Positions 11,234 through 57,354 of a stretch of 64,000 bases of DNA are shown in pieces. The first letter of the stretch is position 1; every line of letters starts with the position of its first letter. The DNA comes from Ardenticatenales bacterium (GTDB taxonomy: Bacteria > Chloroflexota > Anaerolineae > Epilineales > Epilineaceae). Under the pieces are notes generated by a model that saw only the letters and a list, made by a program, of their open reading frames with translations, was not told the origin of the DNA and did no database searches. The stretch spans positions 1,319 to 65,318 of the forward strand of contig JADYYS010000067.1 in the NCBI GenBank assembly GCA_020853525.1, read 5' to 3'. Made by a program: the position numbers and the translations under genes.

Positions 11234-14200
11234 CTACAACGGCAGCGCGTTGGGATCCCCCATCTGCGGCGCACCGATGTACGGCGGCGGCCAGTCCACC
11301 GGCGGCGGGATGATCCCCTCCCGCCAGCAGCCGGCAGCGTCGAAGATCTCCTCCCACGTCAGCGCCGGCGGCTCATCCTCGTCGAACGGCCCGGGCGCGG
11401 CGCGGGTGCAGCCGTAGAACAGCAGCTCGTTGGACATCGAGCGCCAGTTCAGCGTCAACAGGTACTGCTGGCCGTCCGGGACGACGAGCTCCGTGTAGCG
11501 GCCCGGCGTCACCTGGGTCTGATGCGTCTCCCAGCCGTACCGCATTCGCCCGTCCGGTCCGACGGACGCGCGGTCGTTGTAGGTCTCCCGCAGCTCGGTG
11601 CCGAAGCGGGGCTCGTCCGCCTCGGCGCGGATGCTGACCGCCAGCGGCCCGGCGGCCGCCAACTCTCCGACGCACGGACCGAACGTGTCGACGTCCTGGA
11701 AGTCGGCCGCGGGCAGGCGCTGGACGTCGACGGCGATCGTGTGATCCGTGTTGAACGGCGGCAGGACGGAGATCTGCGGCGGCTGGCCGCCCAGGAAATA
11801 GCCCTGCTGGAACAGCGAGTCCTGTGGGTTGAAGAAGTTGCCCTTCGGCACCGGCGTGCGGAGCGTCAGGAAGGCGAAGCCCTCGTTGCACGTCGCCGGG
11901 TCGGCCGGGTTCGTACCGGGCAGCGGCTGCGTCATGAGCGCCACGACGTTGTACTCGTGGCCGTCGACGTAGAACCGTTTGAGGTACCACGGATCGCCCG
12001 GGAAGAGGTCGTGCGCGCCGGCACCGTTGTCGATCGCCGAGTGCGTCGCGCCGAGCGCGCGGCCGACCGTCACCGACACGGACTCGCCGTCCGGGGCAAC
12101 GTCCTCGACGAACAGGAACCACGCGCCGTCCAGGCTGCCGAGGTTCGTCGCGCCGGGCGGCACGATCCGCACCCGGTCCTGGAAACGGTCGACGACGACG
12201 ACGCTGCCGAGCGGCACGGTCTGGATGCCGCGGACGGGCTCGGGGCGGGCGCTGCCGACGGTGCCGCCGGTGAACCAGAACCGGAACTGGGCGCTCAGGC
12301 CGGGCGTGACGTTCTCGAGCACCGCCATGTGGTCGAAGACCATCACGCTATCGGTGACCCCCGCGGTCAGCGGATCGCGGTCGAGGGTGACGCTCTGGAT
12401 CGCGAACACCGCCAGCTCGTTCCCGTTCAGCGCCACGCAGTCCTCGTCGAGGTCGTCCAGCGCGCCGTCGCCGTCGAACTCGACGACCGGTCCGGCGAGC
12501 GGGAGCGGTGCACCGGGGCCCTGCGGGCGGTTCGCCTGCCAGGCGAAGTCGAAGTAGTCGTTGATCGTCGCCTCGGTCTCGAGCGTCACCGGCTCCGGCA
12601 CGCCGTCGAAGTTCGCGTCGAACGTCGTCAAGCCGTGGCCGAACTGGCCGCCGGGCGGCAGTGTACCGCCGGCGTTGGGCTTGGGCAGCTCGAGGGCGCG
12701 CGTGCCCATCGGCAGCGCCACGCGGCTCGAGCCGGCCGGCACGGCGACCGGGTTGTCCGTCGTGTCCATCATGAGGTAGGTGTACTCTTGGACGACGGCC
12801 TGGAACGTCAGGTCGCTGTGGCAGTCCAGGTCCTGGCGGATCTTCGTGATGTAGTCCGGTTGATACCACAGCCGCTGGTAGACCTTCTGGCGCGCGTTCT
12901 GGCCGTCGTTCGAGATCCCGCGGTAGAGGTCGACGAGGTCCTCGCCGAAGTTGCGGTACTCGTCGAGGTAGGCCGGGTTGAACGTCAGCGAGTCGTGGCG
13001 CGGCGCGTCGGGCGCCTGCGGGTTGAACGGGGCGAACGGGTCGGTGTAGGGCGGCACCTCGACCGGATAGCCGGCGATGTCCGTCGTGACCGTGATGTCG
13101 CCCGCGCCGCTCAGCAGCGCGGCCCGGGATGCCGCGCCGTCGCACGCCAAGTCGTCCACGCAGACCGGCAGGCCGCCGTAGATCCGGACCCCTTCGTCGC
13201 CCGTGAAGAGCTTTTCTCGCTCGTCGGGGTCGAAAGCGAAGCTCGCGCGGCGGGGCAGGCCGTAGTTGCCGGTCAGCGGGTCGAACGCGGTCTCGTCGGC
13301 GGTGAGGTCGGGCGGGGGCGGCGGCATCTCGTCCGGGACCGGGCCGTCCGGCATCGTCCATTGGCGCCAGCGCGCCGTCGGGTTGAGGAAGCCGCTCGTC
13401 ACGTCGTAGCGGTCGGGGTCGCACGCGACCGGGCTGCCGCCGGGGGCGGCGAGGTCCGGCAGCGCGAACTCGGTGAAGTGCCACGGCTGGGTGAAGATCC
13501 GCTCGTTGTAGAAGAACGCGTCCGGCACGGACGGGTCCACGATGCACGCCGAATCGTCGAAGCGCCGTGCGCCGTACTTCTCGGCCAGCTGGCCGACGAA
13601 CGCCGGGTTCGTGTCCTCCTCGACGTACAGCCAGTGGCTCGATCGGAAGCCGGCGCCCGCGCCGAGGCTGTACGGGCCGACCGGGCTGGCCGGGTCGCGG
13701 CCGACGTACGTCCCGCCGTCGCCGGCGCCCAGCACCGGCGGCACCGGCCCGATCGGGCCGCCCATGTACAGGACCCTCGGCCGGTCGATCGGATCGTCGG
13801 CCGTCGGCGCCGGGCACGCGTCGATCGCGTCCAGCACGGCCACGTCCTCGAGGATCGTGTGCTCGTGGTTGAACGGCGGCGGGAGCGGCAGGGCGCGGTT
13901 CGGACCGTAGGCCTGCAGGCGCACGGAGTGCTGCTCGATCGTCACCGGCACCTTGGGCACCGGCGCGCGGAGCGTGATGTACTGCATCGCGTTCGCACCG
14001 CACGTCATGATCGCCACGACGTTGTACTCGTGGCCGTCCACGTACAGGCGCTTGAGGAACCACGGCCCGCCGGCGCTGCGGTTCGCGACGTTGGCGATGC
14101 GCTCCATGCTGGCGCACGGCGCGCCGAGCGCCCGGCCGACGGTGACGGTGGCCGTGACGTCCGCCGTGTCCACGCCGTGAACGGCGATGAACCACCCGCC

Positions 14201-17200
14201 GACGGGCACCTGCCCGAGGCTGCTGCCGCCCGGCACGACGAGCTGCACCGGACCGACCTCCCCCGCCAGCGCCGCGCCGCCGACGCCGATCGACGCCGTC
14301 GCCACGAGCCGCGGGACGAGGTCGCCCGTGTAGAAGATCCGCACCGTTGCCGAACTGCTCGAGACCCCCTGCACGGTGACGAAGTGGTCGAGGAACTGCA
14401 GCCGCTGGTTGCGGCCGATCTCGGCCGCGTCGGTGTGCAGCACGACCATCTCGTCGCACGAGAGCGGCGCGCCGTCGCCGTCGATGTCGTCGACGAGGCC
14501 GTCGCCGTCGAAGTCCAGCGTCAGGCCGAGGTCCGCCGCCAGCGTCGCCTCGCTGGCCACGTTCACCATGTCGAACGTGCCGTCGAAGTTCGCGTCGAGG
14601 CTCGTCAGGCCGTAGCCGACGGTTGGTCCGGCGGCACTCGTCTCGGATGCGCCGATGCCGACCGGGAACACGATCCGCGAGCCGCCGGCCGTCGCGCACG
14701 CCGGGCGCGGGGCGGAGTCGTCGAGGCGATCGGGCGACGGGTCGGGCTGCGGCACGTCGTTGTCAAGGACGACATAGGTCAGTTCGGTCATGATCGCCGG
14801 GTACCACTCGTCGCGCGCCGATGGCGCCGGGTTGACGGGCGCGTCGGGGCGGCCGTCGTCCGGCAGGCCCGTGTTCGTCAGGCAGTCGTCGGCGTTCAGA
14901 TCCTTGTCCAGCCGCGTCGGCTCGTACCAGTGCCGCAGCCAGACCTTCTCGGACCCGTTCACGCCGCCGACGCGGATATTCGTGTTCGCGCTGACCTCGT
15001 CGGCGCCGGTGGCGCAGCCCCAAGCCGCGCCGAGGCCCGGCTCGTTCAGCCGCTCCGAGATCCAGGCCGGGTTCCACGTGACGAAGTCCTGCTCGGGCGC
15101 CTCGCCGGACAGCGGGTTGAAGGGCCCCTCGGGATCGGTGTACGGCGCGTCCTCGGGCACGCGCCCCGTCAGCGGGTCGACGAGGCTGTTCGAACCGGCC
15201 GACGCACGCCGGTTGCCCTCGCCGCTGACGACGGCGTTGCAGACGACGCTCAGGCCGTGGACGCGGATCGTCGGCAGGTCGGCGGTGCCGCGGCGGTTCA
15301 CGTAGAGGTCGTCCGGATCGGTCGGGTCGTAGAAGACCTTGACGCGCGACGTGCCGTCCAGCGAGACGTCGCCGAACTCGACGACCTCGTCGTTGCCCGC
15401 CGTGACCGTGACCGTGACGGCGTTCGGCGTCGTCGAGATGTAACCGTTCGGATCCGATTCGGAGACGACGTAGCTGCCGGGCGGTACGTCGGTGAACACG
15501 TAGTTGGCGGCCGCGTCCGTCACGGCGGTGGCGCCGTTGGACAGCCGGACGACAACGCCCGGGATCCCGACCTCGCCCGGATCGCGGACGGTGTCGCGGT
15601 CGATGTCCTCCCAGACCATGCCGTGCACCATGCCGCCCGCCGGCACGCCCGGCCGGTCGCCGAAGTTCACGACCGCCGCGGCGCCGGGTCCGAGAACGAC
15701 GGCGACGACGTTCGGTGTCGTCGAGGCGAAGCCCGGCAGATCCGTCTCCGTCACGGTGTAGTTGCCGGGAACGAGGTTGAGGAACGCGTACCCGCCCGTG
15801 CCGTTCGTCACCCGCACCGCACCGTTGGACAGCGTCACCGTCACACCGGGCAGCCGCGCTTCGCCGAGGTCGATGACGCCGTCGCCGTCCGTGTCGTTCC
15901 AGACCGTGCCCGAGATGCCGGCCGGCGCCGGCGTCGGCGTCGGGGTGCGCGTGGCGGTCGGCGTCGGCGTGTTCGTCGGGGTCGGCGTCAGCGTGCGGGT
16001 GGGCGTGTTCGTCGGGGTGGCGGTCGCGGTTGCCGTGTTGGAAGGCGTCGACGTCGGCGTGTTCGTGGGCGTGTCGGTGGGTGTCGACGTGGGCGTGGCC
16101 GTCGGCGTGGATGTCGACGTCGCGGTGCGCGTCGATGTCGCCGTGCGCGTCGGCGTGTCGGTCGGCGTGTTCGTCGGCGACGGAGTCGACGTGGCCGTGC
16201 TCGTCGATGTCGGCGTGTTTGTGCGCGTGCTCGTCGCCGTCGGCGTCGGGGTCGGCGGGTCGAACTGGACGGGCGTCGGATCGTTCTCGCCGGGCTCGTC
16301 GGCGTTGCCGTCGCCGTCCGGATCGGGGTTCGTGCCGTCGTCCGAGGCGTCGCTCGCGATCGTTCCCGCCGGGCTCGTCGCCGAAGCGATGGCGCTGTTC
16401 AGATGCGGGCCGAGCGCCGTGCCGGGCATGACGGTCACGACGAGCGTGATCGTCCCGGTGCCGAGGAGCGGCAGCGTGTCGGTTCCGCTCAACAGCAGGG
16501 TGTCGACGTCGCCGTCGTACAGCGGGTTCTCGGTGAACGCCGCGCTCGTCACGCTGTCGACGGTAAACGATGTCACGCCGCCGAACGTCGCGGCCAGGTC
16601 GTCCGTCACCTGGAGGCCGGTCAGCACGACATCGCCCAGGTTCTCGACGACGAGGTCGTACGTCACGGTCGACGTGCCGTTCATGTTGTTCACGAGGCTC
16701 GTCACGCGCTTGGCGACGCCGATGGACGGCACCTCGACGAACTGGACGGGCGTCGGATCGTTCTCCCCGGGCTCGTCCGCGTTGCCGTCGCCGTCGGGGT
16801 CGGGCTCCGTGCCGTTGTCGGACGGGTCGGTGACGGTCGGGTTCCCGGTGCTCTGGCCGCTGCCGATGGCCGAGTTGAAACATGGGCCGAGGTTGGCGCC
16901 GGGCGTGACGGTGACGCTCACCTGGATCGTGCCCGTCGCGCCGACGGCCAGCGTGTCGGTGCCGTCCAACAGGTCGGTGTCCGTGTCGCCGTCGTAGCCG
17001 GCGTTCACCGTGAAGTCGGCGCTCGAGGTGCCGTCGACGGTGAACGACGTCGCGCCGGCGAATGTCGCCGCCAGGTCGTCGACGACTTGGACGTTCGTCA
17101 GGGCGACATCGCCCAGGTTCTCGACCGTGAGGGTGTAGTCCACGGTGTGGGTGCCGTTGCCGTGGTTGAACACCATCGTCACGGTCTTGGCGACGCCGAT

Positions 17201-18205
17201 CGCCGGGTTCGTCGTCGGCGTGGCGGTCGGGGTCTGTGTCGCCGTCGGCGTGGGCGTCGCCGTGCTCGTCGCCGTTTCCGTCGGCGTCGAGGTCGACGTG
17301 GATGTCGGCGTCGCCGTCGGTGTCGGGGTGGCGACGACGATCACGACGAACACGCTGGCGTCCGGTCGGTCGCAGTTCGGCGCGGCGTCGAGGTTGGGGT
17401 CGTGGTTGTCGGTCGCCCAAAGCAGGTTCAGCGCGCTTGGGTCGCCGATCGCCGCGCGGGAGACGTACATGTCGACGAAGTCGCCCGTGACGGCGTAACC
17501 GACGGTGCTGTTCGTCGTGTTGCCCTGTGGCCCGCCGGCCCCGGCCGTTCCCGTGCCGAGCACGCGCTGCCAGTCGGCGCTGCCGATCGCGTTGTTCGTG
17601 TAATCGGGCGGATTGTTCGAACCCCATCGGGCGGAGAAGCCGGCGTTCAGGAGATCGTCCATGAACGTCAGCTCGCCCAGCTGGTTTCGGCCGAGCGTGC
17701 AGTCCGCCGGGACGCAGAGGTCCTCGAGGTTCAGCAGGTACTCGGCGTCGTTGATGTTGCCGCCGGAGATCGTGGCGTCGCTGCCGACGGTGTCCAGGAA
17801 CCACTTGTAACGGGCCTGGCCCTGGCTGTCGGCGCTCGGCCAGCCCGCCGGATCGATGTTCTCCATCCGCAGGTAGAGGTACGCGCTGTCGACCGCGTAG
17901 AACGTCGAGATCACGTCGCGGTGGTCGTTGCAGCCGCTCTCCGCCGCGTCGACGACGATCGGCGTCCACGTCGTCGGCCACGCCGCAAACGCCGCGGCCC
18001 GCCGGATCGCGTTCGGTGCCGGCCGCGGACGGCCGTGCTGCCCGTTCGAGGTGGCGATCCCTTGCGCCGATCGTGAACCGACCACCGCCCAAAGGCGCTG
18101 GCCTGCAATCCCGACGACGAGTGCCAGGACGAGCGCCGCGAGCGCGGCGAACGGAGCGGCGGGTGACGGCAGGCGAAAAGCGGGGCGCTGGTCGCGCTTG
18201 ACCAT
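11234..18205 (-). CDS. Giant secreted multi-domain protein (2323 aa). Order of parts: a signal peptide; a conserved ~230-aa N-terminal domain shared with the protein at 53625..56042; a Thr/Pro-rich linker; 2 DUF11/TIGR01451-type repeats; a long Thr/Pro linker; 2 SdrD/CnaB-like domains; and a ~1350-aa internally duplicated module of unknown function
   Basis: The ORF-track protein begins [26 protein letters not shown] (signal). It contains [32 protein letters not shown] and [21 protein letters not shown] twice. It contains a long [17 protein letters not shown]... linker. It contains [35 protein letters not shown] (CnaB/SdrD-like). The C-terminal 1350 aa are homologous to the N-terminal module of the next gene. 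The overlapping plus-strand ORF 11078..18076 is a low-complexity antisense artifact. Confidence 0.85.
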
Positions 18206-18417
18206 GGGTTGTCTCTCAGTGATGGCGATCGCAGCGCTGGTGGGGTTCCGCGCGATGGCAGCGAATCGTGCTCACGTATCGACCGACGGCCGCATGCAGT
18301 CCATGCACCCCGTCACACGCCTTGTCCGCTCGACGCGTCGACGCGCCCGCTCTATGCCACGAGGGCCGGCGACCTTGCGGCCGCCGGCCCCGTGGTGCGC
18401 GTCGCGCGCGCCTAGTA

Positions 18418-18484
18418 CTCTGTCACTGGACACGCTTCAGGTATACGACTGAGGTAGGCATCCGTAGACTCTGCAGTGACAGAG
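18418..18484 (-). terminator. Structured element with an 11-bp perfect inverted repeat (CTCTGTCACTG ... CAGTGACAGAG, ~45-nt loop region) beginning 3 nt after the stop codon of giant gene 3. Candidate terminator or RNA-processing stem
   Basis: The arms lie at 18418-18428 and 18474-18484, and the TAG stop of gene 3 is at 18487-18489. There is no clear U-tract. Confidence 0.3.
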
Positions 18485-18486
18485 CG

Positions 18487-21400
18487 CTAGCGCATGCTGT
18501 ACCCACGGTAGAGCGCCGGCAACAGCGCCCGACCGACGAACGCGTTGCGGTCCAGCAGCGCCTCGATCTTCTGCCCGTCGATCTTCGTCTCGATCGTCTT
18601 GCCGCTCGGATCGGCGAGCAGCGCGCTGTCGACGTTCCAGGCGCTGTCCACCGCGTCCTTCAGGACCTGGAACTCGATCGTGAAGAGCACGACGTCGCCG
18701 TACAGGCCGTTGGCCGGCCGCATCCGGGCGGCGGCGAAGCGGATCTCGCCGGCCGGATCGACCGTGTTCATCGCGACGAACGACGGTCCGTCGGCCTGCC
18801 AAGCGGCACCAGGCTTCACCTGGACGCCGCTGCCCTCGAGCGCATCGATGACCTTGACCTTCTGGGTGTCGAAGCGGACCTTGATGTCCGCGCCGTACAT
18901 GTTCCAGACGCCCTTGGCCACGACGTCGACGGCGATGGTCTCCTCGTCGACTGCCCGTACGTTGAGCGCGACGTCCGTCGGCCCATCCGGCCGCTCGGCG
19001 GGCGCACCCTCGGGCAGGCCGGTGGCGCGGAGGACGGCCGTCGGCAGCACGCCGCGCAGCGCCTTGGCCACCGCACGCTCGGTTGCAGGCGCGGTCGGAT
19101 CGCTGAAGAACGCGGCGCCGTTCTCCTCGCCGTTGTAGCCGAACGGCACGGCACCGCTCCGCCCGTAGTTCGTGCCGACGAGGACAAGGTCGAACAGGTT
19201 CACCTCGTGGTCGGCGTTGCAGTCGGCGCGGATGTCGGACGGCGGCGAGGTGCGGTAGTTCGCCCCGACGCGGACGAGGTCGAAGAGGTTGATGTTCGTG
19301 TTGTTGTCCGTGTCGCCGCCGGGTAGGGACGTGAACGGCAGGTCGAACGGCTGGCCGCCGGACACCCGGAACATCTGGTCGGCGCCGAGGTAGCACGCCG
19401 CGTCGGCGCTGAGGCGATGCTCGCCCTTCGGCACACCGCAGATGCTGAAGTAGCCGTTCGGCCCGGAGACACCGGCCGGCACGCCGTCCACATACACGAC
19501 GGCCCCGGTGTGGTCGCTCCGACCCTGCAGGTTCATGTAGCCGCGGATGCAGCTCGTCTTCTCCGCCGGCTGCGGCACCGTCGTGCAGCCGTCCGTCGGC
19601 ACGCTGGCGGCCGAGACCTGACCGGTCACCGAGTCACGCGCCGACACGCGGAACGTGTAGGACGTGTTGGCGAGGAGATCTGGCGTCTGATAGCTGTAGG
19701 CCGTGCCGGTGCCGACCTGCGTCGTGCTCGGCACCGTGGCCAGCGGGATGTACGACGAGCCGTTGAAGCTCACCTCGACATTGAACTCCGTCTCGAAGTT
19801 CGAGCTGTCGACCCAGGTCACGCGGACCTGCGACCCGCCGGGCAGGACGTTGCAGGCGGCGTTCAGCGGCGGCGGCGGCGCGGCGGTGACGGTGAACGTC
19901 GCCGCCGACGTGTTGTTCGCCGCGTTCGGGTCGGGCGTCTGTGCCGCCACGTGGGCGGTGTTCGTCACCTGCGTGCCGGCCGCCGTGTTGTGGCCGATCC
20001 GGACGACCACCTGGAACGTGCGCGTCTGGCCGCTGTTCACCGTCCCAAGGTTGCACGTCAAGGTCTGGCCCGCGATCTGACAGCCGGTCGTGTTGCTCTC
20101 ATGGGTCACCTGCGCCGGCAGCTGATCCGTGACGACGACGTTCGTCGCCGCGCCGGGGCCGTCGTTGTGGACGGTGAAGTCGTACGTCACGAGGCCGCCC
20201 TGCTGGGCCGGCGATGCCACGTTGACCGCCTTGGTGATCCGGACGTCGGCCGCCTGCGCGACGGTGATCTGAATCGTCACGCTGTCGTTGTTGTTCGCCG
20301 GCACCGGATCCGTGGCCGGGGAGCTGACGGAGGCCGAGTTCGTCACCGAGCCCGAAGCACCTGCCCCGATGCCGGCCGTCACCTGGATCGTCGCGAAACC
20401 GCCTGCCTGGATCGAGGGGATCGTGCACGTGAGCGTCTGGCCGCTGACGTTGCACCCGCCGCTGTTGCTGACGTGCGTCAGGCCGGGCGGCAGCGTGTCC
20501 ACCACCGTCACCGGACCGGTGTTGGACGGGCCGAGGTTGTCCACCTGCAGGCCGAACACCACCTGGCCGCCGGCCGTCACGATCGCCGGGTTCGCGCTCT
20601 TCTCGATGCTGAGGTCCGCCACGCGGCGCGCCGTCACGGTGTTGTTCACCTGGTTGTTGTTCGGATCCGTGTCCGGCGACGACGTCGCGACGGAGGCGGT
20701 GTTCACGAACTGCTGGCCCTGCGTGGCCGACGCCGGGATCGCGACGTTCACGTGGATCGTGCGCGTCGAGTCGTCTGCGACGCTGCCGAGGTTGCACGTG
20801 AGCGTTTGCCCCGTCGCCGTGCAGCCCCCGTCGTTGTCGACGAGGCTCGTCCCGGTGGGCAGGTTGTCGGTGAGGACGACGTTGTTCGCCGTGCCGGGGC
20901 CGAGGTTCTTGACTTCGATCGTGTATTGGATCGTCGTCCCGGCCACGGGCTGCGAATCGGACGCGGTCTTCTGGACCGCCAGGTTGACGTTCTGGCTGGG
21001 CGTCTCGACGACGAGCGCGACGGTGTCGCTGTTGTTCGCCGGCGCCGGATCGGGCGTGCCGCTCGTGACCGTCGCCGTGTTCGAGAACTGCGTACCCGAC
21101 GCGAGCCCCGCACCGACCGTCACCGGGATCTGGACGACGACCGTCGTGCCGTTGGCGATGTTGCCGAGGTTGCACGTCACCGTTGCGGCGGCGAGGCTGC
21201 AGGCCGGCGGGAGCGTGCCCGCCGTGACCTGCGCCGGCAGCGTGTCCGCCACGACGACGTTCTGCGCGGCGGCCGGGCCGTTGTTCGTGACCTTGAGGTC
21301 GAACGTGATCGCCTCGCCCGACAGCGGTGTCGGGTCGGAAGCCGTCTTGTCGATCGCCAGGTCGGCGTCGTTCGTCGGCTGGGACACGATGACGAAGGCG

Positions 21401-24400
21401 CTGTCGGCGTTGTCGGTGACGTCGGGATCCGGTTCGGACGACGTCGCGCTGGCGTTGTTCGTCAGCACGGTGCCCGGCTGCACGTTCTGGCCGACCTGCG
21501 CGACGATCGTGACCGTCTTCGTCTGGCCGTTCGCGAGCGGTCCGATGTTGCAGCCGGCGGCCAGCGCGGCCGCGCCGCACGTCTGGCTGTCGGAGACGTA
21601 CGTCATCCCGCTGGGCAGCGCGTCGGTGAGCGTGACGGTGGCCGCGTCGGACGGGCCGCTGTTCTTCACCTGGACGGTGAACGTCACCTGCGCCCCGGGC
21701 GGCGGCTGGACGCTGGAGGCGTCCTTGTCCACGCTGATATCGGCGCTGCGAACGGCCTCAACGGTGTCGTCGTCCTGGTTGTTGCCCGGATTCGGATCTT
21801 CCGTGTTCAGGCGATCCGGCGCGTCGGCGTCCAGCGTCGACGCCAGGAGCGCCTTGCCGTGCGCCACGCTGGCGACGTTCGTGAGCTGCGCTCCGTTCGG
21901 CACGTTCGCGTTGATGAGGACCGTCATCGTGAACAGCCGCGACTGACCGCTGTTCAGGGCGCCGAGGCTGCACGTGAGCGTGCGCACCGGACTCTGGATG
22001 CAGGCCGATGTCGCGCCCGGTCCGGCGGTATCGCTCTGGTACGTCATCCCCGCCGGCAGGTTGTCGGTGACGATGACGGAGGGGGCGTTCGCCGGGCCGA
22101 GGTTCTCGATGAGAAGGTTGAAGGCGTGCATCGTGCCCGGCGTGACGGTGATCGTCGGCGATGTCTTCGTCAACCGCAGATCGGCGCCCTGGGCGCTGCC
22201 GGTGACCAACGTGGTGGCCGACGCGGTGTTGTTGCCGGGCGTCGGGTCGACCGTCGCCGACGAGACCGACGCGCTGTTGATGAGCTGCGTCCCGGTCAAC
22301 GCGTCGTCGTCGACGTCGACGATGATCGTGAACTGCGCCGCCTGGCCCGAGAGGAGGCTGCCCAACGCGCACAGGCGCGTCGAGCCGCCGCCCGACGTGC
22401 AGCCGTTGGGGTTCGTCGTCGAGACGAACTCCGTGTCGAGCGGCAGGACGTCGTTCACCAGGACGTTGTTCGCGGTGTTGGGACCGTTGTTCGTGACGGT
22501 CAGCTGATAGGCGATCTGCTGCCCCGCCAGGATCTGGGCCGGCCCCGCCTTGGTGATCGCCAGATCGGCCGACGTCCCGGACGCAGGCGTGACGGACGTC
22601 TGCGCAGAGGCATTGTTGTTGCCCGGCGCCGGATCCGGCGTCGACGACGTGACCGAAGCGGTGTTCGTCAGCGTCGTGTTCGCTTGGCCCGCCGTCGTCT
22701 GGATCGTCACGACGACCGCCGCCGAGCCGCCCGAGACGATGCTGCCCATCGCGCATTGCAGGTTGGACGAAGCCGGCGGGTTCAGGCTGCAGACCGGCGG
22801 GATGCTGCCGACGAACGTCGTTCCGGCCGGCAGCGTGTCGTTCAGGGTCACGCCCGTTGCGGTGCTCGGACCGGCGTTGTTCACTGCCAGGGTGTAGTTG
22901 ACCGTGTTGCCGGCCTGCACGGACGTCGGCCCGGTCTTTGTCAGCGAGAGGTCGGCCGACGAAGCGCCGCCGACGGTCGTCGTCGTCGTGCTGCTGCTGT
23001 TGCCGCCGTCCGGGTCGGGCGTGTCGCTGTCGACGCCTGCGATATTCACGAGCTGCGTGCCTTGCGCCAGCCCGCCCACGGTCACGGTGATCGTGAACGT
23101 GCGCGTCACGCCGACGGCGATGTCGCCGAGGGTGCACGTGAGCGTTCCGACCGGGGCCTGCACGCAGCCGCCCGTGTCGGAGACGTACGTCACCCCGGCC
23201 GGAAGCGTGTCGACGACGACGACGTTCATGGCGTTCGACGGCCCGCCGTTGATGACGTTGATCGTGTAGACCAGCGTGCCGCCGGCCACGACGCTCGGCG
23301 GCGCCGACTTCGTGATCCGGAGGTCGGCGCTCGCGACGGCGATGACGGTCGCCGACGACGTGTTGTTCGCCGGCACCGGGTCGGAGACGCCGGCCGCGCT
23401 GACGACGGCGGTGTTGTTCAGGCTCGCCCCCGGTGCGACGTCCGCGTTGATCTTGGCCACGACGTGGAACGTGCGCGAGCCGCCCGAGGCGATGGCGCCG
23501 AGGTTGCACGTCAGCGTGCCGGGCGGTGCCTGCACGCAGCCCGCGTCATCGGAGACGTACGTCATTCCGACCGGCAGGACGTCCGTCACCTGGGCGTTCG
23601 CGACGGCGCTCGGGCCGAAGTTGGAGGCCACCAGCGTGAACGTCACGTTGCCGCCGGCGGTGTACGGGCCGGCCGAGGCCGACTTCTCCAGCCGGAGGTC
23701 GGCCGCAGCGGCGACGATGACCGCCGCCTGCGCCTGGTTGTTGCCGAGCGTCGGATCCGGCGTGTTCGACTGGACCGCGGCGCTGTTCGTCAGGATCGTG
23801 CCGGTCAGTGCGCCCGGCGCCACCTGGACGGTGATCGCCACGGCGGCCGACGCGCCGGCGGCCAGCGTGCCGATCGTGCAGTTGATCGTGTTCGGCGGGC
23901 CCTGGACGCACGCGCCGTTCGAGGCGACGTAGTTCAGCCCGACGGGCAGCGTGTCGATGATGTGGACGTTTGTGGCGTCCGACGGCCCGTTGTTCGTGAC
24001 CAGGAGCTGGAAGACCACCTGGTCGCCCGGTCGCGGCGTGATGATCGACGCGCTCTTGGCGATCGCCAGGTCGGCCGCGCGCGTCGTCGTGACGACGGCG
24101 GTGGCCGAGTTGTTGGCCAGGTTCGGGTCGAGCGTGCTCGTCGATGACACCGTGGCGGTGTTCACGAGGACCGTCCCGACCGGGATCTCCATGTCCAAGC
24201 GCACCGTGACCGTGAAGGAACGCGTCTGGCCGACGGCGATGCTGCCGAACGTGCATGTGAGCGTCCCCACCGGACCCTCGACGCAGCCGTCCGTGTCGGA
24301 GACGTACGTCACGCCTTCGGGCAGGACGTCGCGGACGGTGACGTCGGTGACCGCGTCGGGTCCGTTGTTCGTGACCGAGATCGTGTAGACGAGCTCGCCG

Positions 24401-27400
24401 CCGGCCACCGGGGCGGCCGTCGAGGCCACCTTCGTGATCGAGAGGTCGGCCAGGTCGACCGGCACCGTCACGTCGCGGGTGTTGATGTAGATGTCATCCG
24501 TGTTCGCCGGGTCATAGAAGACCTTGACGCGCGTCGGCTGACCGAGCGGGCAGGCGCCGTCGAAGTAGCCGACGGTGATGTTGTCCTCGTCGTCGAAGAC
24601 GTGCACCTGCGGCGGGTTCGGGTTGTTCACCGGCGGGATGATCCCGAGCGGCGGGGCCCAGGTGTCGCCGGCGGCGCTGATGTCCGTGTGGTCGAGCGCC
24701 GGCGGGTTGAACTCGTTCGGCCCCGGGCCGGGGAAGAACGGGCCGGGCTCGTCGCGCGTGCAGCCGTAGAACGCCAGCTTGCTCACGGGCGACGTCCAGC
24801 CGAGCGTCAGGAGGTACTTCTGGCCCTCCGGCACCCGGATGGCGGTGAAGTTCGACGGCGTGACCATGAGCTGGTGGGTGTTCCAGCCCGTGCGCGTGTT
24901 CTGACCGGTTACCGCCGGCGCGAAGGTCTCGCGCAGCTCGGTGTGCAGCCGCGTCTCGTCCGTCTCTTCGAGGATCGTCTCGACCATCGGATCGGCGGCG
25001 GCAAGCTCGCCCACACAGCTCAGGTAGCCGTTCTGGAAGGCGAAGTCGATCGGCGCCAAGCGGTCGATGTCCAGCGCCAGCGTGTGCTGGAAGTTGAACG
25101 GCGGCAGAACGGACATCTCCGCCGGCAACCCGTTCAGGAAGTAGCCCTGATAGAACAGGGAGTCCTGCGGGTTGATGAAGTTGCCCTTCGGCACCGGGGT
25201 GCGGATCGTGATGAACGCGAAGTTGTCGTTGCACAGTCCGGCCGCGCCGCTGTTCTCGGTCATCAGCGCCACGACGTTGTACTCGTGGCCGTCGACGTAG
25301 AAGCGCTTGAGGTACCACGGGTCGCCCGGCAGGAGATCGTGGCTGCCGTTGCCGTCGTCGATCGCCGAGTGGGTGCCGCCGAGGGCGCGGCCGACGGTCA
25401 ATGTCACGCGGTCGCCGGAAGGCGCGACGTCCTCGACGAACGCGAACCAGGCACCGTCGGGGGCGATGTTCGCCTCGCCCGGGCCGACGATCGTCACGCG
25501 GTCCTGGAAGCGGTCGACGAGCACGGCGTCGCCGATGTCGAGCGTCCGGATGCCGCCGACCGCCTCGGGACGGGCGTTGTTCGGGTTGCCGCCGGTGAAG
25601 AACAGGCGGAACTGGGCGCGCGTGTTGGGCGTGACGTTGTTGAGCGTGATGAGGTAGTCCAGGAACTGGGCGTTGTGGCCCTCGGGCGTGTTCGGATCGA
25701 GATCGAGCGTCAGGCTCTGTACGGCGAAGACCGCCATCTCGTTCCCGTTCAGCGCCTGGCAGTCGGCGTCGAGCGCGTCCTGGACGCCGTCGCCGTCGAA
25801 GTCGAGCACCGGGCCGGCGAGCGGCGTCACGGGGACGCCAGGCAATGTCGGGCGGTTGGACTGCCACTGCTGGTCCAGGTACTGGTTCAGCGTCTGCTCG
25901 GAGTGGATGTTCGATGCGTCGCTGTAGCCGTCGAAGTTCGCGTCGAACGTCGTCAAGCCGTAGCCGAACTGGCCGCCCGCCGGCAGCGTGCCGTTCGGGT
26001 TGGGCGCGGGCAGATCACCGGCGCGCGAGCCGACCGGGAAGGCGATCCGGCTCGAACCGGGCGGCACGCCGGTCGGGTTGTCGGTCGTGTCCATCATCAG
26101 GAACGTGTATTCCTGGACGATCGCCGGGAACTTCAGGTCGCGTTGGCAGTCATCCGTGAAGCGCAGCTTGTCGACCCAGTCCGGCTGGTACCACGTGCGG
26201 TGGTACACCTTCTCACGGGCGTTCTGCGCACCGTTCGAGATCTGCTGGTACAGCTCGCGGAGCGGCTCGTTGAAGTTGCGGAACTCGTCCATGTAGGCCG
26301 GGTTGAACGTCAGCGAGTCCGTGCGCGGCGCATGCGGGTGCTGCGGGTTGAACGGCGCGAACGGGTCGGTGTACGGCGGCACCTCGACCGGATACGCCGC
26401 CAGGCCCGAAATCGGGTCCGTGGCCACGCCGGTGTCGCCTGCGCCGAAGAGGATCGACGGGCGGCTGATGATGCCGTTGCACTCCAGGTCGTCGCAGACC
26501 GGGAAGCCGCCGTACAGCCGGAGGCCGTCGTTGTTCGCGGTCAGCTTGCCCTTGTTGTCGTCGGGGTCGTGGATGAAGGTGACGCGGCGCGGTGAGCCGT
26601 AGCTGCCCGTGACCGGGTCGAAGACCGTCTCGTCGATCTGCAGGTCGGGCGGGGTCGGCGGCTGATCCTCGGGCACCGAGCCGTCGGGCATCCGCCACAG
26701 CCGCCAGCGCGCGGTATCGTTCGTGAAGCCGCTCGTCACCAGGTAGTTGTCCGGATCGCACGCCGGCACACCGCCGGCCACGGGCGCCCCGGCCTGGTCG
26801 GGCAGGACGAACTCGGTGTAGCGCCACGGCTGGGTGAACACCTGCTCGTTGTAGAAGAAGCTCTGCGGGATCCCGGGCGGCTGCGGCACGCCCGGTGCCG
26901 TGTTCAGCGCGCCGTACTTCTCCCGGATCTGGCCGATGAACGGCTCGTAGCCCTCTTCCTCGGTGTAGAACCAGTGGCTGGCGAAGTAGTTGTCGTATGG
27001 GCCGACCGCGCGCTGCGGGTCGCGGCCGGTGTATACGAGCGCGTCGCTCTGCGCCAGGACGGGCGGCATCGGGCCCATCGGGCCGCCCATGTAGAGGATC
27101 TCGGGGCGCGCGACCTCGTCGTCGCCGGGCAGGATCGGGCAGAGATCGAAGCCCTTGAAGTCGATGACATCCTCGAGGATCGTGTGCTCGTGGTTGAACG
27201 GCGGCGGCAGCACGAGCGGCTCGAGCACACCGTAGCCCTCGAGGCGCACGGAGTGCTGCTCGATCGTCACGTCGACCTTCGGCAGGGGCGAGCGGAGGGT
27301 GATGTACTGGATGGCGTTGGTGGCGCACGTCATGATCGCCACGACGTTGTACTCGTGGCCGTCGACGTAAAAGCGCTTGAGCCACCACGGGCCGCCGGGC

Positions 27401-28809
27401 GAGCGGTTCGCCACGTTCGGCGTCGATTCCATCGACGCGCACGGCGCGCCGAGCGCACGGCCGAGGACGACGGTCACCGTGCCGTCGACGGCGTCGGTGC
27501 CCTGGACGTAGACGAAGAATGGGCCGATCGGCATCTGGCCGAGGAGGTTCGCGCCGGGCTGGACGACCTGCAGCGGGCCGACGTCGGCCGCCAGCGCCAT
27601 GCCGTTGACGCCGATCGAGCGGACCTGGACGAGGCGCGGTCGGAGGTCGCCGTTGTACCAGACCTCGAGCACGGCGGCCTGCGACGAAACGTTGCGGACG
27701 CGCACGAAGTGGTCGAGGAACTGGACGGTGCTGCCGCTGTGGATCGTCATCGAGTCCGTCGAGAGGACGACCATCTCGTCGCACGAGAGCGCGACGCCGT
27801 CCGTGTTCACGTTGTCCAGGACGTTGTCGCCGTCGAAGTCGACGGTGATCCCGGAATCGGCGGCCTGCGTGATCTCGCTGCCGACGTTCACCATGTCGTT
27901 CATGCCGTCGAAGTCGACATCGAGGCTCGTGAGACCGTCGCCGCTGAGCGGCCCGGCCGGGTCGGTCGCGCCCAGCGACGTGCCGACGGGGAAGACGAAC
28001 CGCGTCTCACCGGCGCGGCCGCAGATCGGGCGCGGGGCGCTGTCGTCCAGGCGATCCGGGTCGGGATGGGCCACCGGCAGCTCGTTGTCGAGGAGCTGAT
28101 AGGTGAACTCGGTCATGATCGCCGGGTACCACTCGTCCTGGTTGGACGGCGTCGGGTTGACGGCGGCATCCGGCGTCCCGTTGTTGTTGCTGTCCGTCAG
28201 GCAGTCGTCGGAGTTGAGGTCCTTGTCGAGGCGGGTCGGCTCGTACCAGTGGCGGAGCCAGACCTTCTCCGAACCGTTCACGCCCGACGCGCGGATGTTC
28301 GAATCGCGCGAGACCTCGTCGGCGGCGCGCAGGCAGTTCCACTGTGCCCGGAACGGGGCTTCGTTCAACCGCTCCGAGATCCAGGCCGGATCCCAGGTGA
28401 CGTAGTCGAACTCGGGCGCCTCGGTCGAGAGCGGGCTGAACGGTCCCGTCGGATCCGTGTACGGCGGATCCTCCGGCACGTTCTGCGTGTTCGGGTCGAG
28501 GATGGTGTTCGAACCCGCCGTCGCCGGCCGGTTGCCCTCCCCGATGATGCACGAGTTGCAGACCGTGGTGTAGCCGTACAACCGCAGCGTGTCGATCCGC
28601 TCGGTGATGTCGGCCAGCGGAGCGGCGGCGGGGGAGGCGGCGGGGGCTGCGGCAGGCGCCGCACCGGCCATGCCGGCACCCAGGCCGAGGCCGCCCGCCA
28701 TGGCAACGGTCACGGCCATGCAGGCACGCCAGACAGCCGCGCTCCGCGAGCGCGCCTCCGGACGACGGTCGGTTGCCAGACGGGTGGACTGCGAGCGGGA
28801 CTGACTCAT
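18487..28809 (-). CDS. Giant secreted multi-domain protein (~3440 aa). Order of parts: a signal peptide; a ~1350-aa internally duplicated module of unknown function; about 20 DUF11 repeats; an FN3-like domain; a carboxypeptidase-regulatory-like domain; a duplicated dockerin-type Ca-binding segment; and a C-terminal cohesin-like beta-sandwich
   Basis: ORF-track protein 18487..28887. I place the start at 28809 (MSQSRSQS..MAVTVAMAGGLGLGAGMAGAAPA signal) because a GGAGGAG Shine-Dalgarno-like motif sits 7 nt upstream. DUF11 units are of the type DLSITKVASTAAPVAGGELVYTISVTNNGPDAVTDVTVRDVLPEGVTYV. The FN3 hallmark TSYTFRVSARD is present. Dockerin-like segments are GDTDNNTNINLFDLVRVGANY and DCNADHEVNLFDLVLVGTNYG. 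The cohesin-like segment reads GDVVLFTIEFQVLKD. Confidence 0.85.
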   Translation of the reverse strand: MSQSRSQSTRLATDRRPEARSRSAAVWRACMAVTVAMAGGLGLGAGMAGAAPAAAPAASPAAAPLADITERIDTLRLYGYTTVCNSCIIGEGNRPATAGSNTILDPNTQNVPEDPPYTDPTGPFSPLSTEAPEFDYVTWDPAWISERLNEAPFRAQWNCLRAADEVSRDSNIRASGVNGSEKVWLRHWYEPTRLDKDLNSDDCLTDSNNNGTPDAAVNPTPSNQDEWYPAIMTEFTYQLLDNELPVAHPDPDRLDDSAPRPICGRAGETRFVFPVGTSLGATDPAGPLSGDGLTSLDVDFDGMNDMVNVGSEITQAADSGITVDFDGDNVLDNVNTDGVALSCDEMVVLSTDSMTIHSGSTVQFLDHFVRVRNVSSQAAVLEVWYNGDLRPRLVQVRSIGVNGMALAADVGPLQVVQPGANLLGQMPIGPFFVYVQGTDAVDGTVTVVLGRALGAPCASMESTPNVANRSPGGPWWLKRFYVDGHEYNVVAIMTCATNAIQYITLRSPLPKVDVTIEQHSVRLEGYGVLEPLVLPPPFNHEHTILEDVIDFKGFDLCPILPGDDEVARPEILYMGGPMGPMPPVLAQSDALVYTGRDPQRAVGPYDNYFASHWFYTEEEGYEPFIGQIREKYGALNTAPGVPQPPGIPQSFFYNEQVFTQPWRYTEFVLPDQAGAPVAGGVPACDPDNYLVTSGFTNDTARWRLWRMPDGSVPEDQPPTPPDLQIDETVFDPVTGSYGSPRRVTFIHDPDDNKGKLTANNDGLRLYGGFPVCDDLECNGIISRPSILFGAGDTGVATDPISGLAAYPVEVPPYTDPFAPFNPQHPHAPRTDSLTFNPAYMDEFRNFNEPLRELYQQISNGAQNAREKVYHRTWYQPDWVDKLRFTDDCQRDLKFPAIVQEYTFLMMDTTDNPTGVPPGSSRIAFPVGSRAGDLPAPNPNGTLPAGGQFGYGLTTFDANFDGYSDASNIHSEQTLNQYLDQQWQSNRPTLPGVPVTPLAGPVLDFDGDGVQDALDADCQALNGNEMAVFAVQSLTLDLDPNTPEGHNAQFLDYLITLNNVTPNTRAQFRLFFTGGNPNNARPEAVGGIRTLDIGDAVLVDRFQDRVTIVGPGEANIAPDGAWFAFVEDVAPSGDRVTLTVGRALGGTHSAIDDGNGSHDLLPGDPWYLKRFYVDGHEYNVVALMTENSGAAGLCNDNFAFITIRTPVPKGNFINPQDSLFYQGYFLNGLPAEMSVLPPFNFQHTLALDIDRLAPIDFAFQNGYLSCVGELAAADPMVETILEETDETRLHTELRETFAPAVTGQNTRTGWNTHQLMVTPSNFTAIRVPEGQKYLLTLGWTSPVSKLAFYGCTRDEPGPFFPGPGPNEFNPPALDHTDISAAGDTWAPPLGIIPPVNNPNPPQVHVFDDEDNITVGYFDGACPLGQPTRVKVFYDPANTDDIYINTRDVTVPVDLADLSITKVASTAAPVAGGELVYTISVTNNGPDAVTDVTVRDVLPEGVTYVSDTDGCVEGPVGTLTCTFGSIAVGQTRSFTVTVRLDMEIPVGTVLVNTATVSSTSTLDPNLANNSATAVVTTTRAADLAIAKSASIITPRPGDQVVFQLLVTNNGPSDATNVHIIDTLPVGLNYVASNGACVQGPPNTINCTIGTLAAGASAAVAITVQVAPGALTGTILTNSAAVQSNTPDPTLGNNQAQAAVIVAAAADLRLEKSASAGPYTAGGNVTFTLVASNFGPSAVANAQVTDVLPVGMTYVSDDAGCVQAPPGTLTCNLGAIASGGSRTFHVVAKINADVAPGASLNNTAVVSAAGVSDPVPANNTSSATVIAVASADLRITKSAPPSVVAGGTLVYTINVINGGPSNAMNVVVVDTLPAGVTYVSDTGGCVQAPVGTLTCTLGDIAVGVTRTFTITVTVGGLAQGTQLVNIAGVDSDTPDPDGGNSSSTTTTTVGGASSADLSLTKTGPTSVQAGNTVNYTLAVNNAGPSTATGVTLNDTLPAGTTFVGSIPPVCSLNPPASSNLQCAMGSIVSGGSAAVVVTIQTTAGQANTTLTNTASVTSSTPDPAPGNNNASAQTSVTPASGTSADLAITKAGPAQILAGQQIAYQLTVTNNGPNTANNVLVNDVLPLDTEFVSTTNPNGCTSGGGSTRLCALGSLLSGQAAQFTIIVDVDDDALTGTQLINSASVSSATVDPTPGNNTASATTLVTGSAQGADLRLTKTSPTITVTPGTMHAFNLLIENLGPANAPSVIVTDNLPAGMTYQSDTAGPGATSACIQSPVRTLTCSLGALNSGQSRLFTMTVLINANVPNGAQLTNVASVAHGKALLASTLDADAPDRLNTEDPNPGNNQDDDTVEAVRSADISVDKDASSVQPPPGAQVTFTVQVKNSGPSDAATVTLTDALPSGMTYVSDSQTCGAAALAAGCNIGPLANGQTKTVTIVAQVGQNVQPGTVLTNNASATSSEPDPDVTDNADSAFVIVSQPTNDADLAIDKTASDPTPLSGEAITFDLKVTNNGPAAAQNVVVADTLPAQVTAGTLPPACSLAAATVTCNLGNIANGTTVVVQIPVTVGAGLASGTQFSNTATVTSGTPDPAPANNSDTVALVVETPSQNVNLAVQKTASDSQPVAGTTIQYTIEVKNLGPGTANNVVLTDNLPTGTSLVDNDGGCTATGQTLTCNLGSVADDSTRTIHVNVAIPASATQGQQFVNTASVATSSPDTDPNNNQVNNTVTARRVADLSIEKSANPAIVTAGGQVVFGLQVDNLGPSNTGPVTVVDTLPPGLTHVSNSGGCNVSGQTLTCTIPSIQAGGFATIQVTAGIGAGASGSVTNSASVSSPATDPVPANNNDSVTIQITVAQAADVRITKAVNVASPAQQGGLVTYDFTVHNDGPGAATNVVVTDQLPAQVTHESNTTGCQIAGQTLTCNLGTVNSGQTRTFQVVVRIGHNTAAGTQVTNTAHVAAQTPDPNAANNTSAATFTVTAAPPPPLNAACNVLPGGSQVRVTWVDSSNFETEFNVEVSFNGSSYIPLATVPSTTQVGTGTAYSYQTPDLLANTSYTFRVSARDSVTGQVSAASVPTDGCTTVPQPAEKTSCIRGYMNLQGRSDHTGAVVYVDGVPAGVSGPNGYFSICGVPKGEHRLSADAACYLGADQMFRVSGGQPFDLPFTSLPGGDTDNNTNINLFDLVRVGANYRTSPPSDIRADCNADHEVNLFDLVLVGTNYGRSGAVPFGYNGEENGAAFFSDPTAPATERAVAKALRGVLPTAVLRATGLPEGAPAERPDGPTDVALNVRAVDEETIAVDVVAKGVWNMYGADIKVRFDTQKVKVIDALEGSGVQVKPGAAWQADGPSFVAMNTVDPAGEIRFAAARMRPANGLYGDVVLFTIEFQVLKDAVDSAWNVDSALLADPSGKTIETKIDGQKIEALLDRNAFVGRALLPALYRGYSMR

Positions 28810-28892
28810 CTGTGGCTCCTCCGGTTCGAAGAAGGCCCGTCTGGCCCTGGGGGGGACGGATCGGGGCGGGACCTCAAGCGCGCACAAACACG

Positions 28893-51271: not shown

Positions 51272-51704
51272 CTATTCAGGCGCCGGCAACAACTCAAACG
51301 CCCCCCGATGCCGCGGCCGGACGACCCCGAAGTGCCGGTGATCCAACGTCAGGATCGTGCCGATGTTCAGGCGCTCGGCGACGGCGACGATGACGGCATC
51401 GACGAAGTCGAGGCCGCTGTCGCCGTACTTGGTCATGATCTCGGCGGTTCGGCGATAGTCCGCCAAGTTGGGCTCGAGGAGGGCGAATGACGTGCTGCCT
51501 TGGCCGGCAAGGTCGACGAAGACTGTAGCCGCACTGCGACCGATTCGACCGGACAGCACAAAGCAGATCTCGGCCAGCGCCGATGATGGCAACCAGGGCG
51601 TCGTGCGCAACGTGCGGGCCGTCCGCGCGACGAGCGCATGATCGGGATCCCTCGGGTTGACCAGGCTCACGATGAAGCTCGTATCAGCGATGCTCGTTGT
51701 CACG
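51272..51704 (-). CDS. vapC: VapC-type PIN-domain toxin
   Basis: The PIN domain reads IADTSFIVSLVNPRDPDH..GLDFVDAVIVAVAERLNIGTILTLDHRHF. A GTG start at 51704 overlaps the vapB stop, and GAGAGGA lies upstream. Confidence 0.7.
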
Positions 51705-51956
51705 CCGGATCCTCTCGTGCTTCGCGAGAACGATCTCTCCGAAGATCTCCTCTGCTTCCCTCCCAAGCGGCGCGGCAGGCCCGTCGAAGATCCCGATCAA
51801 CGCTTCCATCGGCGACCCCTCCGTCTCGCCCGACTCCGCCACGTACGTCCCCACCGCCTCCCGGATGAGCAGCGACGTCGTCGTCCCTCGGCGCCGTGCA
51901 AGCTCCTGCAGGCGCGCGTACATCTCCTCGTCGAACATGACCGTAGTGCGTTTCAT
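51684..51956 (-). CDS. vapB: Ribbon-helix-helix (CopG/VapB-like) antitoxin
   Basis: The protein reads MKRTTVMFDEEMYARLQELARRRGTTTSLLIREAVGTYV. The track ORF 51684..52406 is over-extended at the 5' end. Confidence 0.7.
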   Translation of the reverse strand: MKRTTVMFDEEMYARLQELARRRGTTTSLLIREAVGTYVAESGETEGSPMEALIGIFDGPAAPLGREAEEIFGEIVLAKHERIRRDNEHR

Positions 51957-52161
51957 CGTGTCCTCCTCGTCGATCGTGTGGATATGCTGCCATATATGGC
52001 GCTGGCGGAGAAGCTGGCACGTCACCTCCCAATCGCCGCCCGCTTCGCCGCCCGCTTCGCCGCCCGCACCGCTCAACGCACGCCCGGCGCGCGTATCATC
52101 GTTGACCGACGAGCCACGGCACCGCCGTCGAGCGGCCACCCGACCCAACCCGGAGCTCGCC

Positions 52162-56042: not shown

Positions 56043-56299
56043 GTCGATCACCCCGGGACAGCAGGGCGGTCGGATCGCCAGCATAACACAAAAATAACCA
56101 CCGGCGCAAGCGGTCATCCAAGCCGATTCCAACGCACGCCAGGAACGCCCGTGCGGTCGCATGGTGCCGGCCGCGTGTTCGCCGCGGCCACACCAATCAT
56201 CGCCGCCCGGTGTCGCGTATCACCACTGAATCACCCATGCGGCCTCCGACTCGCCGGACCGGCCGCACCCCACAGTGATGAGACATTCGGAGGATTGCC

Positions 56300-57065: not shown

Positions 57066-57354
57066 CATTCCGCCTGACGGCGTTGCGCGGCCCGCTTTCC
57101 CGAACGCCCAACACTCCCCCATCCCGCTCCCGACGCTTGGCCGTGCGCCAGGCGTCGTCGCATACCGCCGAGCTTGCCTCGCCTACCCTGGGCGCATGGC
57201 ACGACGTTAAGCTCGGTACCCCCGGATCGGCCGGGCCTCGGCCCCGTGGCGACCCCGTCGACCCGTCCTCCCTCCGGCCTTCGGCACCGCGCGTACGGTC
57301 ACGGACCGGGAGCGCGGCGGGCCAATCATTCGGCACGCTCCATGCGTACCATCC

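Follow-up and report, generated by a model that had tools for sequence, protein, structure and literature searches.

A conserved X-dockerin and cohesin cassette at the C-terminus of a giant secreted protein of Anaerolineae

Three co-directional giant genes, here called A, B and C, lie on the minus strand of a 64,000-nucleotide stretch of contig JADYYS010000067.1 from an Ardenticatenales bacterium; this whole stretch is the window referred to below, and its GC content is ~70%. We find that the C-terminus of the gene A product is an X-dockerin dyad joined to a cohesin, forming the 'foot' of a giant secreted protein, and that this foot probably serves to dock it into an assembly at the cell surface. 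The presence of a dockerin and a cohesin at the same C-terminus had been proposed in an initial annotation of the sequence, and both profile and fold searches support it. The functions suggested there, self-polymerisation or anchoring to a partner, are plausible, given that relatives encode membrane-anchored and multi-cohesin proteins.

Results

Gene A and the anatomy of its C-terminal cassette

Gene A (18487-28887, minus strand) encodes a giant secreted protein of 3466 amino acids (aa) when counted from TTG in the open reading frame (ORF) list and translation; its probable start is a conserved ATG at 28809. The protein runs from a signal-like N-terminus through a head of ~1400 aa and 12 DUF11 repeats (Pfam, E=2.9e-288) to the C-terminal cassette. 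Its N-terminal segment (MSQSR...AVTVAMAGGLG) is kept in the orthologs of L001 and L002, where L### denotes loci from a scan of metagenome-assembled genomes (MAGs) and P#### denotes proteins from protein searches. The segment, charged at first and then hydrophobic, resembles a signal peptide, which suggests an extracellular location. The head had no family match in Pfam, NCBIfam or the PDB sequences, and an exact-sequence look-up of gene A matched no record. The complete architecture is conserved in P0018 (3427 aa, 54% identity). Translation confirmed the coordinates of the following parts of the cassette:

19585-19857, minus strand: FN3-like β-sandwich (Pfam fn3 below cut-off; β-strands in the AlphaFold2 (AF2) models)
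19321-19557, minus strand: X module, a β-sandwich of CarboxypepD_reg-like type immediately ahead of the dockerin
19153-19320, minus strand: dockerin, two calcium-binding loops, each with a helix after it
19279-19314, minus strand: dockerin loop 1, DTDNNTNINLFD
19189-19224, minus strand: dockerin loop 2, DCNADHEVNLFD
18985-19152, minus strand: linker of 56 aa from dockerin to cohesin, predicted to be disordered
18574-18984, minus strand: cohesin, a β-sandwich of ~137 aa
18487-18573, minus strand: C-terminal tail, 28 aa and the stop codon, with a conserved LP[W/A] motif

All four peptides quoted in the initial annotation occur in the translated gene A ORF. Its order of domains was right, although the series that it assigned to the last ~320 aa spans about 460 aa. 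The range given for the series, 18487-19450, does hold the dockerin and the cohesin but starts inside the X module, and the FN3-like domain lies upstream of it, as does the quoted CIRGYMN... string, at about 19483-19551.

Two single-chain AF2 models reached overall predicted local distance difference test scores (pLDDT) of 72.5 and 77, and in both the predicted template modelling score (pTM) was 0.49 despite confident individual domains. The linker had a pLDDT mostly <50, and the tail a pLDDT <50, in both models. Across the 87 dockerin-to-cohesin junctions found in 155 retrieved proteins, the two matches of the hidden Markov models (HMMs) stood 23-83 aa apart (median 36 aa). The LP[W/A] motif of the tail, whose conservation was seen by aligning gene A with P0001-P0005, reads LLPALYRGYSMR in gene A and LYLPW... 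in P0001-P0004. A sortase or PEP-CTERM signal was ruled out for the tail, which is too short and lacks a hydrophobic helix. Two plus-strand ORFs over the cassette, 18268-19326 and 18545-19138, were set aside as antisense: the long plus-strand frames across the window are Arg-rich as a class (15-28% Arg, <1% Lys), which is expected of antisense frames in DNA of 70% GC.

The dockerin and its calcium loops

The two loops, DTDNNTNINLFD and DCNADHEVNLFD, lie 30 residues apart and fit the canonical D1/N-D3/D-N5/D-N9/D12 pattern, and AF2 places a helix directly after each of them, at 172-180 and 202-210. The gene A domain thus has the two tandem segments of ~22 residues, each a 12-residue calcium loop and then an α-helix, by which the dockerin family is defined. 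Its two repeats hardly differ from each other (NLFDLVRVGANY and NLFDLVLVGTNY). Across 93 cassette dockerins, Asp occupies loop positions 1 and 12 in 99-100% of cases, and the helix residues behind each loop are also strongly conserved. When the six-frame translation of the window was searched with a regular expression for the calcium loop, four matches were obtained, two of them the gene A dockerin loops and the other two in gene C, which has nine SdrD_B domains; a chance origin of the loop motif is not a concern.

Dockerin_1 was the top Pfam match in all eight sequences of the family alignment, with a best E-value of 2.3e-7. EF-hand-like segments, the outcome that the initial annotation had set against its own assignment, were searched for and came out both rarer and weaker, as EF-hand models matched four of the eight family members with lower significance than Dockerin_1. 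Relatives from L017, L005, L023 and L008 (25.1, 25.9, 26.8 and 23.6 bits, respectively) score above the gathering cut-off of the Pfam dockerin family (PF00404), which is 22.9 bits. A search of the PDB with the family dockerin profile matched 31 sequences, about 27 of which are dockerin-bearing chains; the best match was the dockerin chain 2y3n_B (E=5e-7) and the second was the C. perfringens NagH dockerin. These family-wide Pfam matches, the PDB profile matches and the Foldseek matches to X-dockerin chains given below settle the assignment despite a sub-threshold score for gene A itself, and sequence and model alike identify the domain as a genuine calcium-binding dockerin.

The X module, the FN3-like domain and the cohesin

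The initial annotation had described a separate carboxypeptidase-regulatory-like β-sandwich ahead of the dockerin. The fold was correctly recognized, but the domain is not separate: it joins the dockerin to form a type II X-dockerin dyad. In gene A the CarboxypepD_reg match stays below the cut-off (19.5 versus 32.3 bits), and relatives from L017 and L008 as well as P0013 exceed it; the CarboxypepD_reg-dockerin pairing is conserved among relatives. A plain sequence search already aligned the X module with that of 4wi0_B. In the AF2 models the X-dockerin region has a pLDDT of 84-95, and its top Foldseek matches are type II X-dockerin chains (E=2e-8 to 3e-9, probability 1.00). The X module and dockerin superpose jointly on 4wi0_B, 4u3s_B, 5k39_B and 5m0y_B, with target-normalised TM-scores of 0.70-0.72 over 153-155 columns. 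Because these alignments cover both the β-sandwich and the dockerin, we take the CarboxypepD_reg-like domain to be the X module of the dyad.

The FN3-like domain scored 20.7 bits (E=5e-4) against fn3 in the whole protein and 15.9 bits on the last 437 aa, with a cut-off of 25. Relatives also fall just short of this value, P0009 and P0014 reaching 22.5 and 23.8 bits. The region is modelled as β-strands with a pLDDT of 73-85, and the domain is found in the homologs P0001, P0002, P0004 and P0005.

The terminal domain is a cohesin, an assignment that is solid from its own sequence: its Pfam Cohesin (PF00963) score of 32 bits exceeds the cut-off of 24.1 (E=1.6e-7), with the match covering profile positions 13-130 of 139. 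Its AF2 model is all-β with a pLDDT of 83-92. The family cohesin profile matched type II cohesins in the PDB (E=2e-3), and Foldseek retrieved cohesins of types I, II and III along with non-cellulosomal ones (E=5e-8 to 1e-4, TM-score 0.5-0.71), among them SdbA (2bm3), 1qzn, 2y3n_A and A. fulgidus 2xdh (E=1e-6 to 5e-8, TM-score 0.6-0.71). Type II cohesins are best by E-value, and the TM-scores of type I and non-cellulosomal cohesins are equally high (0.66-0.71).

Relatives and spread of the cassette

A word-indexed protein search gave few matches. P0001-P0005, which are 36-43% identical to gene A, share its order of FN3-like domain, X module, dockerin, linker and cohesin; in P0006 and P0007 the order is cohesin, X module, dockerin. 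The genome scan, for which the query was a four-sequence subset of the family alignment, recovered orthologs in L001 (an Ardenticatenales MAG) and L002 (an Anaerolineales MAG) that are 75-76% identical over the C-terminus. It also recovered the dockerin-to-cohesin cassette at the end of large proteins in L003-L005, L007-L010 and L023, all from Anaerolineae; in L005 two adjacent giants each carry one. A profile search of 1.84 billion cluster representatives gave 899 matches at E≤1e-30. Among the best 150 of these representatives (50%-identity clusters), 86 have the cassette in one collinear stretch, and in 79 of the 86 it lies ≤35 aa from the C-terminus, which corresponds to at least 79 distinct clusters. 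The carriers that have a named source organism are Anaerolineae (Chloroflexota), and one member is named 'cohesin domain-containing protein [Anaerolineae bacterium]' by NCBI.

Among the 155 retrieved proteins, 60 have the architecture dockerin-cohesin and 29 have cohesin-dockerin-cohesin. The family carries DUF11, DUF7507, SdrD_B, Golvesin_C, BNR and Peptidase_M6 domains as payloads; P0007 has a GH16 domain, and a right-handed β-helix is present in a cohesin-X-dockerin protein of L016. Variety of this kind would be expected of a general docking module. Most payloads are adhesin-like repeats or a protease, and GH16 occurs only in P0007.

C-termini of Poribacteria that consist of a dockerin and about 150 aa were rejected as cassettes, being a dockerin followed by a FlgD_ig or T9SS-type sorting domain. 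Proteins with a dockerin and then a FlgD_ig or Por_Secre_tail domain occur in L012, L013, L026, L033 and L035 (Poribacteria and unclassified MAGs). The carriers are WD40, multihaem-cytochrome-like and LDL-receptor-repeat proteins, and several of the genes stand in tandem in L033 and L035.

Candidate docking partners

In the whole window the family HMMs detected a single dockerin and a single cohesin, both of them in gene A. In other Anaerolineae, L011 and L014-L017 contain clusters of genes for payload-X-dockerin and payload-cohesin-X-dockerin proteins. Interleaved with these are small proteins in which a signal peptide and a single cohesin precede a long Pro/Thr stretch, and which end in a hydrophobic helix with a basic tail. 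They adjoin X-dockerin proteins, their sole Pfam domain is Cohesin, and from their sequences they look like membrane-tethered anchoring scaffoldins:

L016:17030-18052: membrane-anchored single-cohesin protein
L014:536-1588: membrane-anchored single-cohesin protein
L017:8778-9662: membrane-anchored single-cohesin protein
L011:17872-19164: membrane-anchored single-cohesin protein

Within the same sequence family, multi-cohesin proteins are represented by P0055, with two N-terminal transmembrane helices and five cohesins, by P0039, with three cohesins and one dockerin, and by P0150, with three cohesins. Together, P0055 and the transmembrane-anchored cohesins look like a scaffoldin system in which transmembrane helices take the place of SLH anchoring. 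Both dockerin-only and cohesin-only proteins occur in relatives.

Genes B and C and the surroundings of the giant genes

The other two giant genes are as follows:

11234-18205, minus strand: gene B, 2323 aa
~11100 to beyond position 1, minus strand: gene C, >3700 aa, C-terminus off the window

Neither a dockerin nor a cohesin was found in gene B with Pfam or the family HMMs, nor in the visible 3700 aa of gene C, which contain SdrD_B (nine copies), DUF11 (nine), DUF7507 (eight) and CBM96 (two). Both modules are likewise absent from 30 metagenomic loci that resemble gene C at its visible end. The best of them, L039, is a hybrid that matches the repeats of gene C over its first 483 aa and is 79% identical to gene B over the remainder; the absence of both modules from L039 and the related loci is suggestive, though no proof, for the unseen C-terminus of gene C. 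Giants B and C probably associate, if at all, by means other than dockerin and cohesin. A candidate is offered by the ~1400-aa module that gene A shares with gene B, which could mediate association between giants: over 1336 aa, the N-terminal module of gene A (24610-28809, minus strand) shares 61% identity with the module at the C-terminus of gene B (11237-15499, minus strand). This module is internally duplicated (about 31% identity), with a motif ending in [IL]MT that occurs twice, and it is conserved in many metagenomic giants, for example P0018 and P0045. In L002, an ortholog of gene B adjoins the ortholog of gene A.

Further genes in the window are:

29173-31152, minus strand: cNMP-binding plus bPH_2 protein
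51676-53646, plus strand: YHYH-domain protein
53628-56219, minus strand: Thr-rich protein of 864 aa with a weak CHAT match
57078-59102, plus strand: zf-HC2 (anti-sigma-like) protein

The genes for UvrC and ThrRS sit between these neighbours of the giant genes. No connection to the cassette was found for any of the CHAT, YHYH, zf-HC2, cNMP/bPH_2, UvrC and ThrRS genes.

Discussion

The identities and order of the modules, the conservation of the calcium-loop residues and the recurrence of the cassette are directly established. Docking is inferred because characterised members of the dockerin and cohesin families bind each other, because the cassette is conserved, and because anchored cohesins are present in the lineage. 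From these sequence data we favour, as a reasonably probable reading, that the foot of gene A is a monovalent adaptor cassette, part of a non-cellulosomal network of Anaerolineae in which surface assembly relies on cohesin and dockerin. The calcium-loaded dockerin, buttressed by the X module, would plug into a cohesin displayed at the surface and tether the protein by its C-terminus, with the 12 DUF11 repeats serving as a stalk and the ~1400-aa module as a distal head. The terminal cohesin would regenerate a free socket for a further X-dockerin protein, either another copy or a different payload. The cassette would then act as a monovalent, valency-preserving adaptor scaffoldin, and chains of like or unlike proteins could form. 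Since dockerin-only relatives exist, a cohesin is not required for mere anchoring, which favours the socket-regenerating role.

Several observations weigh against this proposal. The gene A dockerin stays below the Pfam cut-off given above, with 13.6 bits when scored in context and 17.3 bits when scanned by itself. No anchor cohesin and no second dockerin protein were found in the window or in the examined parts of L001 and L002, and the candidate anchors come from Anaerolineae MAGs other than these two. In a neighbour-joining tree, which carries no support values, the cassette cohesins, anchor cohesins and pre-dockerin cohesins group apart, so that their specificities may differ. Covariation between dockerin and cohesin, scored as mutual information with average product correction (MI-APC) over 85 cassette sequences (effective number of sequences, Neff, 72), gave inter-domain values on a par with intra-domain ones and indistinguishable from background. 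The single-chain pTM of 0.49 predicts no docking in cis but is weak evidence against it, as it rests on a shallow alignment.

The same modules could serve homotypic, head-to-tail self-polymerisation, in which the dockerin would bind the terminal cohesin of the next copy, or of a close paralog, and build daisy-chained fibres or a sheath with no anchor. Both modules reside in one chain and are the only ones of their kind in the window, the pair is conserved in at least 86 clusters, two giant cassette proteins are adjacent in L005, and the cassette cohesins make up a group of their own in the tree. The near-identical repeats NLFDLVRVGANY and NLFDLVLVGTNY point in the same direction, presumably resembling those of dual-binding-mode dockerins. 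Cellulosomal scaffoldins with both modules, however, keep them apart in specificity, as in CipA and ScaA, where the difference between dockerin and cohesin prevents self-binding, and the dockerin-only and cohesin-only partners among relatives point to a network rather than a closed self-system. We consider self-polymerisation unlikely as the sole function of the cassette, although it is compatible with the adaptor reading and the two are not mutually exclusive.

It is quite improbable that the dockerin folds back on the cohesin of its own chain as an intramolecular clasp, stabilising or auto-inhibiting the C-terminus until a competitor displaces it. The conserved dockerin-to-cohesin order, the close spacing and a flexible spacer in all junctions (median 36 aa, range 23-83; pLDDT <50) would permit such a clasp, but the spacing varies about fourfold, neither AF2 model (pTM 0.49) packs dockerin and cohesin together with confidence, and the cohesin-dockerin-cohesin variants (29 of 155) are ill-suited to a simple 1:1 arrangement. 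We give very little weight to a last alternative, that the modules no longer interact: the loops would be generic structural calcium sites of EF-hand-like kind, and the cohesin-like β-sandwich at the end would serve as a spacer or bind carbohydrate. The sub-threshold dockerin score, the weak EF-hand matches in four of eight family members, the similar calcium loops in the SdrD_B-rich gene C and the modest PDB matches of the cohesin profile (E=2e-3) are all in keeping with it. They are opposed by Dockerin_1 as the top Pfam match in all eight members, by the joint superposition of X module and dockerin on solved X-dockerin dyads, by a cohesin score above the Pfam cut-off, and by the systematic co-occurrence of both modules in a family that also contains multi-cohesin, scaffoldin-like proteins. 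The conserved helix residues after the calcium loops further suggest a constrained binding surface.

The adaptor reading places gene A beside three kinds of known system. As in the type II X-dockerin and cohesin pairs (CipA of C. thermocellum with SdbA, OlpB or Orf2p, and ScaA of A. cellulolyticus with ScaB; PDB 2b59, 4wi0, 4u3s, 5k39, 5m0y), an X module lies directly upstream of a two-loop dockerin. The dyad superposes on solved type II dyads at TM-scores of 0.70-0.72 and 21-24% identity, type II cohesins head the cohesin matches by E-value, and the proposed role is shared, namely holding a huge scaffold-like protein at the cell surface. In contrast to type II systems, we found no SLH-bearing anchors, relatives of gene A using a Pro/Thr stalk and a C-terminal transmembrane helix instead. 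The gene A dockerin also precedes a cohesin rather than ending the protein, its payload consists of DUF11 repeats and an unmatched head rather than CBM3 and a row of enzyme-binding cohesins, and its host belongs to the Chloroflexota rather than the Clostridia.

Like monovalent adaptor scaffoldins such as R. flavefaciens ScaC, gene A combines a single cohesin and a single dockerin within one secreted chain, so that filling one socket would open another (the concept is reviewed in PMC4959524). Known adaptors are small dedicated proteins in which the cohesin comes first, whereas here a C-terminal cassette with the dockerin first is mounted on carriers of up to several thousand residues. Like the non-cellulosomal modules of A. 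fulgidus (ORF2375/2376, 2xdh) and the glycosidase/toxin complexes of C. perfringens (2jh2, 2vo8, 2ozn), the cassette lies outside cellulose degradation. Among the folds closest to the gene A cohesin is that of A. fulgidus (TM-score 0.69-0.71), and the NagH dockerin of C. perfringens ranks second among the PDB sequence matches of the family. The A. fulgidus pair is described as binding strongly and specifically in the passage of PMC9705933 that cites Voronov-Goldman 2011 and Haimovitz 2008. The Anaerolineae cassette differs from both systems in phylum, in its giant adhesin-like carriers, in a fixed X-dockerin-to-cohesin arrangement (at least 79 clusters) and in being known from sequence.

A cellulosome was rejected, as no carbohydrate-active enzyme (CAZyme) payload, no CBM scaffoldin and no SLH anchor was found here; scans of the giant genes and of further large ORFs detected no glycoside hydrolase. 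Non-cellulosomal cohesins and dockerins were surveyed earlier by Peer et al. 2009, as cited in PMC6487960. In the literature searched we found no paper on a cohesin-dockerin system of Anaerolineae, the coverage of Chloroflexi in Peer et al. 2009 being unchecked. The gene A foot is a new example of a known module pair, with a conserved cassette architecture, and not a new mechanism. Nothing is overturned by it, as both module families are known and non-cellulosomal cases have already been catalogued.

We speculate, tentatively and with more doubt than conviction, that Anaerolineae run a complete, undescribed non-cellulosomal system, in which the pass-through cassette would stack giant adhesin-like proteins and some enzymes on membrane-anchored cohesins to build a surface layer or sheath, with gene A recruiting the cassette-less B and C through the shared 1400-aa module.

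If the adaptor reading is correct, protein engineering would gain additional orthogonal cohesin-dockerin pairs from the cassette. The cassette would also carry the cohesin-dockerin principle into a second bacterial phylum, with a transmembrane-helix anchor in place of SLH or sortase and with mostly non-enzymatic cargo, and would provide a testable handle on how filamentous Chloroflexota mount surface proteins of several thousand residues.

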